Assembly (NCBI GenBank): GCA_002841975.1
Contig: PHBQ01000017.1
Coordinates: 33,695 to 97,694 of the forward strand
DNA from: Candidatus Cloacimonetes bacterium HGW-Cloacimonetes-1
Lineage (GTDB): Bacteria; Cloacimonadota; Cloacimonadia; Cloacimonadales; Cloacimonadaceae
DNA: 64,000 nucleotides
Reading direction: 5' to 3'
Position 1 is the first letter of the stretch. Each line of letters starts with the position of its first letter. Both the position numbers and the translations under genes were made by a program. The notes beneath the pieces are model-generated. The model saw nothing but the letters and a program-made list of their open reading frames with translations. It did not search any database and was not told the origin of the DNA. Of this stretch, positions 42,484-46,720 are shown piece after piece.

Positions 42484-42615
42484 ATCAACTCCTTTAAGCT
42501 GCTTGTATATCAATTTATTACAAATCAAGGTATAGGAATTTTCCTGTAGAGCTGTATCCCATATCTTTTCAGAATCGTCAAGCAAAATCTCTGGGAGGCT
42601 GTTGCACTCTTCGTA

Positions 42616-42962
42616 CCGGAGCTTGCTGAAGCTCCGATCTTTCTTCTTTTGCGGAGGATCGGCATCCTCCGGCTACGAAAAAGGTTCTGCCCACCGAGCT
42701 TGGGAGCGAGAACCTGCTCCCTCTCCAGTTCTGGAAGTCTGGGTCCCCAATCGTCAACTTGTTGGCTGTAGGTGTTTGGGGTGAAGAGAGCTGGGGTGAG
42801 TGAAGCCTAAGGTGGAGCGCAGCGGAACCTCAGGAAACACACACCCAACACAGTTTTAGTCCTGGAGGGGCGGCACAAACGTGGTTTGGGAAAAGGGCAG
42901 ACATGCAGGTCTGCCCCTATGGTAAACTCTGTGTTACTATAGCAGGAACGGCGTCCTGCTCG
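42616..42962. repeat. Mosaic repeat block on the left flank of the AT-rich island
   Basis: Its order is a CB two-hairpin unit (42616-42677), aacctgctccctctccagttctgg (42711-), gggaaaagggcagacatgcaggtctgcccct (42888-42918), gtgttactat, then aggaacggcgtcctgctc. The same modules occur in the same order at 46478-46656. Confidence 0.75.
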
Positions 42963-43125
42963 ATTTGGATTACCTTTGTTTCCGGAGTCGATCCAGGTTG
43001 TCGCTTTATCTCTGCCATGACAGGTTCGTTGTACCAAGGTCTATGCCCAGTATCCTCACGGGCTTGCCGCACTTAGATGACACAAACACGCTAGTCATAC
43101 AAATCTCCCAAAATCATATACCTCA

Positions 43126-44067
43126 TTACTGTGTTCTGGTAATTATCCAATTAGCCAACCCCGCTGACATCGCCAGTTTAGCAATCTCTTCCGCAAACAG
43201 TAAGTTCGCATTTGTATTAGCAGTTTCTTTTTTGTATTTGATCAGATTCTTAGCAGGGCTATGTGCGAAAAAGAAGAGTTTTCCATTGTCAGGCAACGCA
43301 TCTTTGTACTCTTCATATTCCTTTTTGGTCGCCCTAGATTTAACTTGAACCCATGCCCTATCTCCAGTTAATGGGTCAACTAAGTCAATATCTAATGTCT
43401 TCTGAGTTCCACCAACCTTTGAAACCCTTTCCCATCCCACATGGCGTATAATCAGATCAATGAGGAGCTCAAAATCGCTCCAAGTCAGGGATTGGATCAA
43501 GGGCATTAACGCCTTCTCAAGATCTTGAAAACACTCATTTGCCATGTCGTTGTGCTCTGTCCTGCGTCCATTGATTTTGCGAATAATGTAGTCTGTATCT
43601 GTTAAATCATACTCGCAAATTGTTCCAAGAAATCCTCTTTTTGCTGTTATCCGACCGTTGATATTGCTCATGTACAAGATGTTTCCATTAATGTCCCTAT
43701 CACTCCAACCAAGAGGAGATGATTTGATCTTCAGGTTTTCTGATATTTGCTCAATGTCTTTGTCGGCTTTGCACCACCACATTTTGTTGTCATGAAAAGT
43801 AATCCATATTGTCTCTGAATTAGCTGTATAGAAATACTTCACTTGTTTTACGTGATTTTTCGCTGTAGTTATGTTTGTTTTCATCCCATCGACGAAGTGT
43901 TTTATGACTCCATCCCACTTTTGATCTACACATAATTGATGATCCACCTCTCGATAATCGAGCATGACTTGACCATTGTTTCTGCACTTTTCAAAGAAAG
44001 AGCTTCCTTTACCAAGCCTAATAAATAGTGCATTTGATGCTGTTACTTCTTTGTCTCTTGTTTTCAT
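43126..44067 (-). CDS. Unknown N-terminal domain (~190 aa) fused to an Mrr-type PD-(D/E)xK restriction endonuclease domain
   Basis: The C-terminal block LTWSDFELLIDLIIRHVGWERVSKVGGTQKTLDIDLVDPLTGDRAWVQVKSR fits the Mrr_cat pattern (W.DFE.L ... D.D ... Q.K). I do not recognise the N-terminal half. Confidence 0.7.
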   Translation of the reverse strand: MKTRDKEVTASNALFIRLGKGSSFFEKCRNNGQVMLDYREVDHQLCVDQKWDGVIKHFVDGMKTNITTAKNHVKQVKYFYTANSETIWITFHDNKMWWCKADKDIEQISENLKIKSSPLGWSDRDINGNILYMSNINGRITAKRGFLGTICEYDLTDTDYIIRKINGRRTEHNDMANECFQDLEKALMPLIQSLTWSDFELLIDLIIRHVGWERVSKVGGTQKTLDIDLVDPLTGDRAWVQVKSRATKKEYEEYKDALPDNGKLFFFAHSPAKNLIKYKKETANTNANLLFAEEIAKLAMSAGLANWIITRTQ

Positions 44068-44107: not shown

Positions 44108-44854
44108 TTAGATCGTCCGCGCTTTTATGTGGTAGTCTATGCTTTTCATCCGACAGAAATCTATAACTATATCTACTGAATCATTATAGAAATCTTGAAA
44201 TCCCTTGTAGGCTGATACCAACTTATTATAGTGCAATCTCCCAAAGATAATCCTATCAGTGAAGGAAACTTGACTAAGTAAAGATCCCAGGTCTTGCTTA
44301 ACTATATTTGGTGTGGGATACGGCTCTATACTCACCCATGTTTTACAACCCATGTCGTGCAAGTTCTTCATGCTTGCCAATCGAGTGTGATAATCTGCAG
44401 AAAAGGGCTCGTACTGCTTTCTAAAGCCTTCATCGAAAGAAACCAAAGAAATGCCCCACTCATGCTTTCTATCAGACTTCGAAAGCTCGTGAGGGAGAAC
44501 TCCCTTAGTAAGAGCAGTGCATTTTATACCATAATGATCCAATAGCTTGATGATCTCCAGGCTCATTTCAGTTACTTCAGGATATCCATACATAAATGGG
44601 TCGGTGGTAAAGCAAAGATGCACGGATTTGATACTTTTCTGCTTCTTGGGAATCTCTTTCTTTAACAGATCGAGAGCGTTTTCAACGAGCTTGGGTTCCA
44701 GCCAATCTTGATAATCTTTTACCCTGCCGAATCTGCGAGCCATCATGTAAGCATAACAGGGATATGTGCAACCATGAGAACAACCCAACACGTGGTTAAT
44801 TGTGTAGTCGCCGTATTCAACACCGGTTTTGTATAGTAAGGTTTTTCTTATCAT
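44108..44854 (-). CDS. Radical-SAM-like TIM-barrel protein with a three-Cys motif (SPL/COG1533 or Gp37/Gp68 DUF5131 type)
   Basis: 248 aa. Cys triad GCSHGCTYPCYAY near the N-terminus. Downstream blocks HLCFTTDPF, ALTKGV, ISLVSFD and WVSIEPYP resemble SplB-like/Gp37-like proteins. The start lies 2 nt after the TcmP-like gene's stop. Confidence 0.65.
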   Translation of the reverse strand: MIRKTLLYKTGVEYGDYTINHVLGCSHGCTYPCYAYMMARRFGRVKDYQDWLEPKLVENALDLLKKEIPKKQKSIKSVHLCFTTDPFMYGYPEVTEMSLEIIKLLDHYGIKCTALTKGVLPHELSKSDRKHEWGISLVSFDEGFRKQYEPFSADYHTRLASMKNLHDMGCKTWVSIEPYPTPNIVKQDLGSLLSQVSFTDRIIFGRLHYNKLVSAYKGFQDFYNDSVDIVIDFCRMKSIDYHIKARTI

Positions 44855-44856
44855 GT

Positions 44857-45957
44857 TTAATAAATCTCAATTATGTCTTTTTTGGTCGGTTTACTGCTTT
44901 GCCTCATCGATGATACACGCACTATGTTCGCCAAATTGTTATTATACAGATTCAAAACAGCAAAAGATATGTCTTTGCCAAGATATGGTGTGGTATCTAT
45001 CATTTTATCAAGCAGTTCATCGAATGATAATCGTAACTTCTTGAAGTTAGTACAAATATACGATTCGATCTCTTGAACAGGATCTTCAATTAGATCGAAA
45101 ATGAAACTCTGGTTCTGATTTTTACCTATATACTCTATCTTTCCATGATTCAACTCGGCAAAACAAGCCTTCATGATCTCACATCCACGTATATGATTAG
45201 TTAAATGAATCATGTAAAAGTAAGTCCGATCTATCGCTGGAAAACAAATCCTATATGGGAGGACATATCTCGAGAACTGCTTGAATTGGTTCCTTATCAA
45301 GTCTATAATGCACGCTTCTCGTTCAATTCCGTGAAGCTGTTGGCAATCCCTCCATTCAGTGCAACCGAATAGTTCATCCATTGTGTTGTCAACTTTCCCC
45401 GAACTAATGCCTCTATTAACAGCATTGAACATAAAATTGAAATATACTTCGCTGTTTTTAACCTCCATTAGGCGTTTTATTGTATTTATCTTGATTTTAT
45501 ACCCATATGGATCAACTAAAAAGAAAGTAGGATATAGCTTCTTTCCTTCATTGCTAAGATTCGTAAGTAAACTGTTTATGTAAGTATCGAAATCATCATT
45601 GTATAACTCGTACTCGCAAATACAGTTGAAATACTTAAAAGCATGGGGGATGTTATCAGTACATCTCTTGTCGGTATCGAGTATTGTGATACAGCAATCT
45701 CTATCCAGAGTTCGCGCATTGTTTTCAATGACCTCTGCCGCTATTATCGGGCTACCTGGGTGCAGAACACTGTCCTTATCATACATACCACATCCCCCAA
45801 AACAATCGATGAAATTTAACGCACCTGCATGCCCCACTATTTTGACCCATTTATCGAAGTATGATTTGAAGACTTGATGCTTAATCATTGTCTGCTCCTC
45901 ATATACAAAAGCAAAATAGGGCTTTCCAGGGTATTTAATAACGTCGTGAGTCGCCAT
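44857..45957 (-). CDS. TcmP-like protein (three-Cys-motif partner protein, methyltransferase-like fold)
   Basis: 366 aa. The motif series FIDCFGGCGMY ... GSPIIAAEV ... FFLVDPYGYK ... FNFMFNAVNR ... LFGCTEWRD matches my recollection of TIGR04474. D-x-F-x-G-x-G resembles SAM-binding motif I. Confidence 0.6.
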   Translation of the reverse strand: MATHDVIKYPGKPYFAFVYEEQTMIKHQVFKSYFDKWVKIVGHAGALNFIDCFGGCGMYDKDSVLHPGSPIIAAEVIENNARTLDRDCCITILDTDKRCTDNIPHAFKYFNCICEYELYNDDFDTYINSLLTNLSNEGKKLYPTFFLVDPYGYKIKINTIKRLMEVKNSEVYFNFMFNAVNRGISSGKVDNTMDELFGCTEWRDCQQLHGIEREACIIDLIRNQFKQFSRYVLPYRICFPAIDRTYFYMIHLTNHIRGCEIMKACFAELNHGKIEYIGKNQNQSFIFDLIEDPVQEIESYICTNFKKLRLSFDELLDKMIDTTPYLGKDISFAVLNLYNNNLANIVRVSSMRQSSKPTKKDIIEIY

Positions 45958-45974
45958 AATTCTTACTAAACCTC

Positions 45975-46184
45975 CTAATTATCGAATGTCCTTGCTTTGC
46001 GCAGTCTATTTGCAGTAAGTTCCAGTAACCCGGCATAGAGAGCTTTGATCTCTGGCTCCGTCAATCCCAGGGCAGCAAAGACCACATCATCCAAGGCCTT
46101 TCTATCCGGCAAGGGATTGGCATTCATAAAAGAGCTGGACTCAGGATCAACCTGCAACTCATGAAAAATACTATTCATAATCAC
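45975..46184 (-). pseudogene. Probable C-terminal remnant of a DNA methyltransferase (type IIG / N6-MTase style tail)
   Basis: 69-aa ORF. The motif RKALDDVVFAALGLTEPEIKALYAGLLELTANRLRKA resembles the conserved C-terminal (E/K)LD..V....GLT..E...(V/L)Y.....L...R..KA tail of many R-M methyltransferases. No catalytic part exists upstream; repeats and a hairpin follow instead. Confidence 0.45.
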
Positions 46185-46359
46185 CTCTTATACTTATATC
46201 AATATTTTTCCCTATTTATGTCAAGTAATTTTAATGCTGCTCAAACCAGCTGAAGATGGTGGACCAACCGGCTAAAGCCAGCGTTACCCATACGGGGCGG
46301 TCACTTTCAGCGTTCTGCGGACTCTGGAACATCCCCATTCCATGAAGCTTCCTTATTGA

Positions 46360-46428
46360 GTTGTGGCTATGATGTGGCTATGCCGCCCTATGATTCATGG
46401 GGCGGCATAGCCACATCATAGCCACAAC
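46360..46428. repeat. 29-bp perfect inverted repeat (long hairpin) with an 11-nt loop
   Basis: gttgtggctatgatgtggctatgccgccc (46360-46388), loop tatgattcatg, then gggcggcatagccacatcatagccacaac (46400-46428). I verified the arms base by base as exact reverse complements. Confidence 0.9.
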
Positions 46429-46477
46429 TAAGTAAGGGAGCGGTAGTTTTCGGAAAGGCTGAATGCCGGGCTTGCAA

Positions 46478-46720
46478 AACCTGCTCCCTCTCCCGTTCTG
46501 GGAGTCGGGGTGTTTTGGGAAAAGGGCAGACACGCAGGTCTGCCCCTACTGGAAAATCCGTGTGAATCCGTTTCATCCATATTATCCGTGTTACTATTCC
46601 ATTATCATTTTTCTTTACTGCCATGACACTCAGTAGGATCGGCGTCCTGCTCTACAGCGTAGCGGAGCTTTCTGAAGCTCCGAGTCTTTTCCTTTAGTAG
46701 GATCGGAATCCTACTCTACG
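46478..46720. repeat. Mosaic repeat block on the right flank of the AT-rich island
   Basis: aacctgctccctctcccgttctgg, gggaaaagggcagacacgcaggtctgcccct, gtgttactat, aggatcggcgtcctgctc, then a diverged CB unit (gcggagctttctgaagctccg ... gtaggatcggaatcctactctacg). It has the same orientation as 42616-42962. Confidence 0.75.

Follow-up and report, generated by a model that had tools for sequence, protein, structure and literature searches.

Modification-dependent nucleases act in phage defense and serve in the laboratory for mapping modified bases; with each new sensor domain among them has come a new specificity. Here we describe a candidate for such a domain, encoded in a single nuclease gene on a 64,000-nucleotide (nt) stretch of contig PHBQ01000017.1 from Candidatus Cloacimonetes bacterium HGW-Cloacimonetes-1, hereafter the window. 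The described enzymes with which we compared it are the modification-dependent endonucleases MspJI and AspBHI, the SRA-HNH enzymes TagI/ScoA3IV, the EVE-HNH enzyme VcaM4I, and the DUF3427-DUF3883 McaZI group. Enzymes of this kind join an N-terminal sensor to a C-terminal HNH, PD-(D/E)xK, or DUF3883 domain, and modification dependence gains support when no methyltransferase is encoded nearby (Lutz et al. 2019, PMC6765204). The window protein follows the same plan, being a single polypeptide with an N-terminal sensor candidate, a C-terminal nuclease, and no adjacent cognate methyltransferase. On balance, we think it somewhat probable that the protein is a solitary type IV-like restriction enzyme, in which a new N-terminal sensor would recognize some DNA feature that the host lacks and cleavage would fall to the Mrr-type domain.

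A sequence-only reading of the gene had assigned the C-terminal part to the Mrr-type PD-(D/E)xK nucleases, with the proviso that the catalytic residues be conserved among homologs. We counted residue conservation over 182 full-length relatives of 26-82% identity; E200, Q241, and K243 are present in every one, and D226 in all except one. Judged from these sequences, the motif is the Mrr-type D...QxK variant of PD-(D/E)xK, with catalytic residues intact family-wide, and the assignment holds. The only Pfam signal in the window protein is Mrr_cat (PF04471) at residues 191-245 (E 0.0017), whose score of 18.9 bits lies under the 21-bit gathering cutoff; relatives clear the cutoff (P0031, for example, at 25.9 bits), and a precomputed PF04471 assignment is present on many. 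The full-length AlphaFold (AF2) model, with a predicted local distance difference test (pLDDT) score of 89, contains a restriction-endonuclease-like alpha-beta-beta-beta-alpha-beta core, which DSSP resolves into helix 196-210, strands 213-218, 226-230, and 237-246, helix 248-256, and strand 263-271. Foldseek comparison of the whole model with the PDB retrieved MspJI, AspBHI, FokI, and NucS/EndoMS at E 2e-4 to 5e-3. These alignments have template modeling (TM) scores of 0.2-0.3 and root mean square deviations of 7-20 Å (16-20 Å where near full length), values that fit matches driven mainly by the nuclease; they are uninformative on the N-terminal domain, which was therefore modeled by itself.

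Modeled alone, the N-terminal domain yields a confident AF2 prediction (pLDDT 96.3; predicted TM score 0.90), with elements in the order strand, helix, strand, three helices, four-strand meander, helix, strand, helix. Where the sequence-only reading had seen an unrecognized domain of ~190 amino acids (aa), the lack of any family has been borne out and the extent has not, as the globular part is really ~165 aa (~6-168) followed by a linker helix at 171-193. A Pfam scan of the domain found zero families in the window protein and 56 homologs, an NCBIfam scan of the window protein found no match, a PHROGs search of it gave nothing useful, and PDB sequence searches with the single protein and with two profiles gave no meaningful match. 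The domain alignment covers residues 6-168 in 57 sequences of <80% identity, taken from the window and the fetched loci. The domain is novel, belonging to no Pfam or NCBIfam family, and, contrary to the concern raised in that reading, it is not a housekeeping fold as judged by Pfam, PDB sequences, and PDB fold matches.

The structural check proposed in that reading produced a confident fold and no significant relative in the PDB. With the domain alone, Foldseek returned no PDB match at E ≤ 0.001; the best fold match, the EVE-domain protein 2ar1, is nonsignificant (E 0.16, probability 0.30, TM 0.37), and so is an ASCH protein among the viral models of BFVD (TM 0.43, E 0.9, probability 0.18). 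The global resemblances are thus to the PUA superfamily only (EVE, ASCH), and no profile or fold match to SRA, EVE, YTH, or ASCH reaches significance. Aligning the domain profile to EVE, ASCH, and SRA alignments with hhalign gave probabilities of <1%, but the control comparison of EVE with ASCH was also negative, so this test is insensitive and leaves room for a shared superfold. We leave the fold unassigned and regard a diverged PUA-like barrel as no more than a possibility. One viral model does match strongly, BFVD A0A8S5NVT7, an uncharacterized 336-aa protein of Myoviridae sp. ctEBR14 (E 2e-5, TM 0.77, 9% identity), and it is the sole strong structural neighbor of the domain. Weak matches of ~60 columns to the Hjc and DUF4297 nucleases led us to consider whether the domain is a second, degenerate PD-(D/E)xK domain; with probabilities ≤ 0.08 and no conserved acidic residues on the corresponding strands, the idea was dropped.

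Conservation within the domain centers on W121, invariant in 182/182 relatives, with further conserved positions at K/R17, L18, G19, F79, W88, T90, F91, W98, R/K115, T149, and C151. Position 147 is R in most members (GFRGT) and L in the window's clade (GFLGT), which also carries K at position 115 in place of the usual R. These two substitutions may reflect a changed specificity in the clade. They occur with or without the TcmP and radical-SAM genes that lie upstream in the window and so do not track that association.

The N-terminal domain is not confined to Mrr-type nucleases. A profile search restricted to shorter proteins returned mostly fragments of the family, together with proteins that carry an HNH nuclease after the domain (P0213, P0248). 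Classifying the C-terminal partners in 242 proteins with a complete N-terminal domain, from a P0213-seeded search, gave 231 Mrr-type, 7 McrA-type HNH (seven clusters, McrA/ScoMcrA-type), 2 NOV_C/DUF3883 (P0320, P0331), 1 HNH_2 (P0302), and 1 second, unrelated HNH (P0248); the seeds bias these counts toward Mrr, while the variety is real. The domain is a movable, separable module. Its presence on at least four other nuclease domains lends indirect support to the earlier suggestion that it is a reader or specificity module, as does the lack of a cognate methyltransferase. The domain cannot be assigned to SRA, EVE, or YTH. Within a 67-sequence set that included the HNH fusions, one member matches the NCBIfam entry "phosphorothioated DNA-binding restriction endonuclease."

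The McrA-type HNH domain (P0294-P0404, found with P0213) also occurs behind at least four other N-terminal families, which have 37, 21, 11, and 5 members among the matches. These are mostly without Pfam annotation, with DUF3427 among them, and hhalign relates none of the four larger ones to our domain (probabilities <1%); further candidate sensor domains can be drawn from them. In some family members, an extra N-terminal domain precedes the sensor candidate: DUF6508 in a Woesearchaeota protein (P0031/L019, 458 aa), an AIG2/GGACT-like domain in P0130 (470 aa), and unannotated extensions in P0026 and P0057. The N-terminal extension of P0048 may be a gene-call fusion.

The family is large. A word-indexed search recovered 25 relatives of the window protein, and a profile search of 1.84 billion cluster representatives (clusters at 50% identity, ~1,600 of which carry the family) recovered 1,596 at E ≤ 1e-3, including 526 at ≤ 1e-30. 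Among the 150 representatives listed, almost all are 300-330 aa long and match end to end. Recurrence of the two-domain protein in 1,596 representatives means that the architecture is not due to chance and that this is a large conserved family. Its bacterial hosts include Bacteroidota, Ignavibacteria, Planctomycetota, Chloroflexota, Nitrospirota, Patescibacteria, Alpha-, Beta-, and Gammaproteobacteria, and Cyanobacteria, and its archaeal hosts include Thaumarchaeota, Methanoperedens, and Woesearchaeota. Plasmid records with a member number 116, of which 101 are from Klebsiella, and the annotation is always "hypothetical protein." The Klebsiella homolog (WP_004026570.1, 32% identity) sits on all 101 of these records, many of them conjugative plasmids; on pKpnU95 of Klebsiella pneumoniae (L146, NZ_MK552109.1, 151589-152506), it lies beside a hypothetical gene and near IS26 and qnrS1. 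Distribution of the family is patchy and mobile. A phage-borne gene was considered and dropped on the near-absence from viral records, with no relatives among 50,697 phage records and a relative on 2 of 2.9 million viral contigs.

There is no conserved neighbor, the most widespread neighbor cluster occurring in 7/89 loci, several of them from Sphingomonas, in which shared ancestry probably explains the sharing. A Pfam scan of 138 neighbors within two genes, from 48 nonredundant loci, found Mrr_cat, N6_N4_Mtase, and NA-iREase1 as the commonest families, at three each, and integrase, resolvase, Mrr_N, T5orf172, DUF4145, and Radical_SAM twice; many of the neighbors are housekeeping genes. Individual loci contain defense-type neighbors, namely GmrSD, a type I R subunit, canonical Mrr, MmeI, DUF4145 with AIPR, and HD with a reverse transcriptase. 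The family is essentially stand-alone. As in type IV enzymes, no cognate methyltransferase lies alongside, N6_N4_Mtase making up 3/138 neighbors and no neighbor being conserved, and, also as in type IV enzymes, one protein holds a nuclease and a separate candidate target-sensing domain, the two folding independently and the latter being reused.

Under the type IV-like reading, the C-terminal Mrr-type PD-(D/E)xK domain (E200, D226, Q241-x-K243) would cut DNA, and the N-terminal domain of ~165 residues, probably the part that chooses the target, would select the DNA to be cut. It would bind a feature missing from the host's own DNA; the likeliest such feature is a modified base, which might be flipped into a pocket formed by the conserved aromatic residues, and the long helix would couple the sensor candidate to the nuclease. 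The gene would move alone between defense islands and plasmids and, in the window genome, would have traveled in, or been captured, beside the TcmP/radical-SAM pair without depending on it. We infer DNA binding by the N-terminal domain, dependence on modification, and an anti-phage role. Several observations weigh against this interpretation. Searches with Pfam, Foldseek, and hhalign gave the N-terminal domain no significant match among known modified-base readers. The host genome encodes one C5 methyltransferase and several N6 methyltransferases, which makes a context-free m5C or m6A specificity unlikely (an N6_N4-type methyltransferase was not found in this genome). The nuclease gene lies 40 nt behind the TcmP and radical-SAM genes, and the trio has moved as a block at least once. 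Finally, one representative of PDC-S02, a defense candidate compared below, gave no protection to E. coli B against T4, T5, and T7 (bioRxiv 10.1101/2024.09.26.614923).

The three genes suggest a different explanation, and the sequence-only reading had implied that the nuclease forms a functional unit with its two upstream genes. The nuclease could be the restriction arm of a three-gene system, with TcmP and the radical-SAM protein placing an unusual mark on host DNA and the nuclease cutting unmarked DNA, or with its N-terminal domain reading the mark. The nuclease gene is the third and last of the three co-directional genes, which are separated by gaps of 2 nt (TcmP/radical SAM) and 40 nt (radical SAM/nuclease), and TcmP-type pairs related to this one are PADLOC candidate defense systems, PDC-M30/M41. 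A 75% homolog has the full trio as one 3.2-kb block of 79% DNA identity in a genomic setting other than that of the window (metagenome loci L005/L006), and radical-SAM remnants lie upstream of the nuclease in L112/L113 and probably L111, all in keeping with such a system. However, that locus, represented by two overlapping contigs, is the only one of 93 fetched in which the pair is adjacent, so that the full trio is seen in the window and L005/L006 only and not across independent lineages. With an 82% homolog, homology extends into the 3' end of the radical-SAM gene, where it meets the edge of a contig; with the 74%, 71%, and 65% homologs (P0006, P0007, P0008), it begins 9-10 nt before the start codon, and the upstream genes are unrelated, leaving these relatives without the pair. 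In the 76% homolog (L112), the nuclease is intact beside a radical-SAM gene that is 5' truncated, with the first 77 codons gone, and TcmP has been replaced by HaeIII-type fragments. The nuclease is thus tolerated without that pair, and a nuclease cutting unmarked DNA should not survive there. Moreover, in related genomes, the gene after a TcmP/radical-SAM pair varies and is unrelated, being DUF1828/DUF1829 (264 aa), an unannotated 290-aa protein, or two small open reading frames (ORFs). The proposed unit therefore does not extend to the family: the trio is a recent, clade-limited block, and the nuclease, as a gene independent of it, persists where no working pair is present. We regard the three-gene system as improbable, and it should not be taken for granted that the adjacent TcmP and radical-SAM pair works as one system with the nuclease.

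The solitary nature of the gene is also compatible with a trigger-activated nuclease of the abortive-infection type, in which the N-terminal domain would respond not to a base modification but to a protein of the phage, a signaling small molecule, or abnormally structured DNA, and indiscriminate DNA cleavage would follow. The gene stands alone in defense islands, some loci have Abi-type neighbors (AIPR, reverse transcriptase), the domain has no demonstrable relation to known base readers, and the assayed PDC-S02 representative failed to restrict T4, whose cytosine is modified. Yet no signal-producing partner is conserved, and the other partners of the domain, McrA/ScoMcrA-type HNH and DUF3883, are typical of modification-dependent restriction enzymes, making this explanation unlikely. 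A housekeeping nuclease of DNA repair or recombination, analogous to NucS/EndoMS with its N-terminal DNA-binding and C-terminal PD-(D/E)xK domains, is suggested by the presence of NucS/EndoMS among the whole-model Foldseek matches (E 1.6e-3 to 5e-3), but the N-terminal domain by itself has no match to NucS. In 20 related genomes, a DNA search recovered the neighbors of the nuclease gene and in none the gene itself; it is present in a single copy in its own genome, in an island of 37-40% G+C against 45-54% in the adjoining kilobases. With the family scattered over phyla and plasmids amid variable neighbors that are often defense genes, a repair function seems very improbable.

The type IV-like restriction enzyme remains the account we prefer. 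A bolder proposal, which we put forward tentatively and with some doubt, is that the N-terminal domain represents an undescribed class of DNA-feature reader, with a new fold or a PUA-like barrel too diverged to be recognized, for a modification or other non-self DNA mark not covered by SRA, EVE, YTH, DUF3427, or sulfur-binding sensors, and plugged into at least five nuclease modules. If so, it would define a new, abundant family of type IV restriction enzymes, present inter alia on common Klebsiella plasmids. Reuse of the domain on Mrr, HNH, and DUF3883 nucleases provides a clear and cheap hypothesis that is testable in E. coli.

Table 1. Coordinates (positions in the window) of the nuclease gene, its parts, and its neighbors
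Feature	Position	Strand	Description	Basis
Nuclease gene, whole ORF	43126..44067	-	313 aa plus stop; N-terminal sensor-candidate domain, linker helix, Mrr-type nuclease	
N-terminal domain, residues 1-168	43564..44067	-	Compact alpha/beta	AF2; no described family
K115 codon	43723-43725	-	Substitution in window protein and relatives of ≥65% identity	
L147 codon	43627-43629	-	Substitution in window protein and relatives of ≥65% identity	
Linker, residues 169-193	43489..43563	-	One long predicted helix joining the domains	DSSP, helix 171-193 in full-length model
Mrr-type PD-(D/E)xK nuclease domain, residues 194-313	43129..43488	-		Sub-threshold Pfam Mrr_cat; whole-model Foldseek
E200 codon	43468..43470	-	Predicted helix acidic residue of nuclease core	E in 182/182
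D226 codon	43390..43392	-	Predicted metal-binding D of D...QxK motif	D in 181/182, E in 1/182
Q241-V242-K243 codons	43339..43347	-	QxK of Mrr-type motif	Q in 182/182, K in 182/182
Radical-SAM protein, upstream neighbor	44108..44854	-	248 aa; 40 nt from nuclease gene; not a family-wide partner	
TcmP (three-Cys-motif partner protein), upstream neighbor	44857..45957	-	366 aa	TIGR04474, E 4e-44; PADLOC PDC-M30A
3.2-kb block common to window and L005/L006	42954..46154	-	79% DNA identity	blastn

The coordinates of the locus are given in Table 1. The nuclease ORF opens with ATG, and its translation is identical to the one quoted in the sequence-only reading. The block shared with L005/L006 holds a methyltransferase 3' fragment in addition to the trio, and a 69-aa ORF at 45975-46184 resembles a leftover methyltransferase 3' end. 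The island flanks (42612-42964 and 46478-46719) carry mosaic blocks of direct repeats (54 nt/87%, 34 nt/91%, 38 nt/82%) and 24-nt hairpins. A 47-nt inverted repeat at 46347-46441, with similar DNA at at least a dozen other sites in the genome's contigs, looks like a repetitive extragenic palindromic (REP) or miniature inverted-repeat transposable element (MITE)-like element. No empty site was demonstrable in the 20 related genomes because the two flanks are not syntenic in them. In related genomes, TcmP/radical-SAM pairs are found directly behind Eco57I, N6_Mtase, or Type_ISP_C genes (L101 G003:C21, L102 G005:C20, L103 G009:C58, L104 G014:C1), and in L101 a T5orf172-helicase lies between the methyltransferase-type gene and the pair. 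The literature on TcmP, DUF5131, and PDC-M30 yielded nothing mechanistic.

Comparison with known systems places the window protein near several of them. For EVE and ASCH proteins, the likeness is one of fold, as the best global matches in both structure libraries are PUA-superfamily members and the strand and helix order of the N-terminal domain is compatible; in contrast, the matches are nonsignificant, the search brought up no other EVE structure from the PDB, and a sequence-profile signal is absent. With E. coli Mrr and Mrr_cat (PF04471), the family shares the D...QxK variant and the upstream helix glutamate, and some members pass the cutoff. Canonical Mrr, however, has a winged-helix Mrr_N domain where the window family has an unrelated alpha/beta domain, and true Mrr_N-Mrr_cat genes are separate neighbors of family genes in some loci.

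PDC-S02, a PADLOC single-gene candidate known from surveys, has the same size and architecture as the nuclease family. Distant family members match its profiles across both domains at E 1e-7 to 4e-10; in one example, residues 10-227 align to profile positions 5-218 of 324. A single PDC-S02 profile is matched by up to 17/67 diverse relatives, some across both domains. The window protein itself matches weakly (E 0.0011) and over residues 191-275 only, short of full-length membership; by these profile matches, it is a member of a sister group to the profiled set.

The modification-dependent endonucleases provide the broadest parallel. Unlike theirs, the N-terminal domain here is, by searches of Pfam, profiles, and folds, not SRA, EVE, YTH, ASCH, or DUF3427, and what is new is a sensor candidate that is abundant, confidently folded, in neither Pfam nor NCBIfam, and with "hypothetical protein" as its sole annotation. 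The overall architecture is nonetheless familiar: the sensor candidate is reused with HNH, PD-(D/E)xK, and DUF3883 nucleases, as in those enzymes, and the whole model has its top structural matches in MspJI and AspBHI, both modification dependent.

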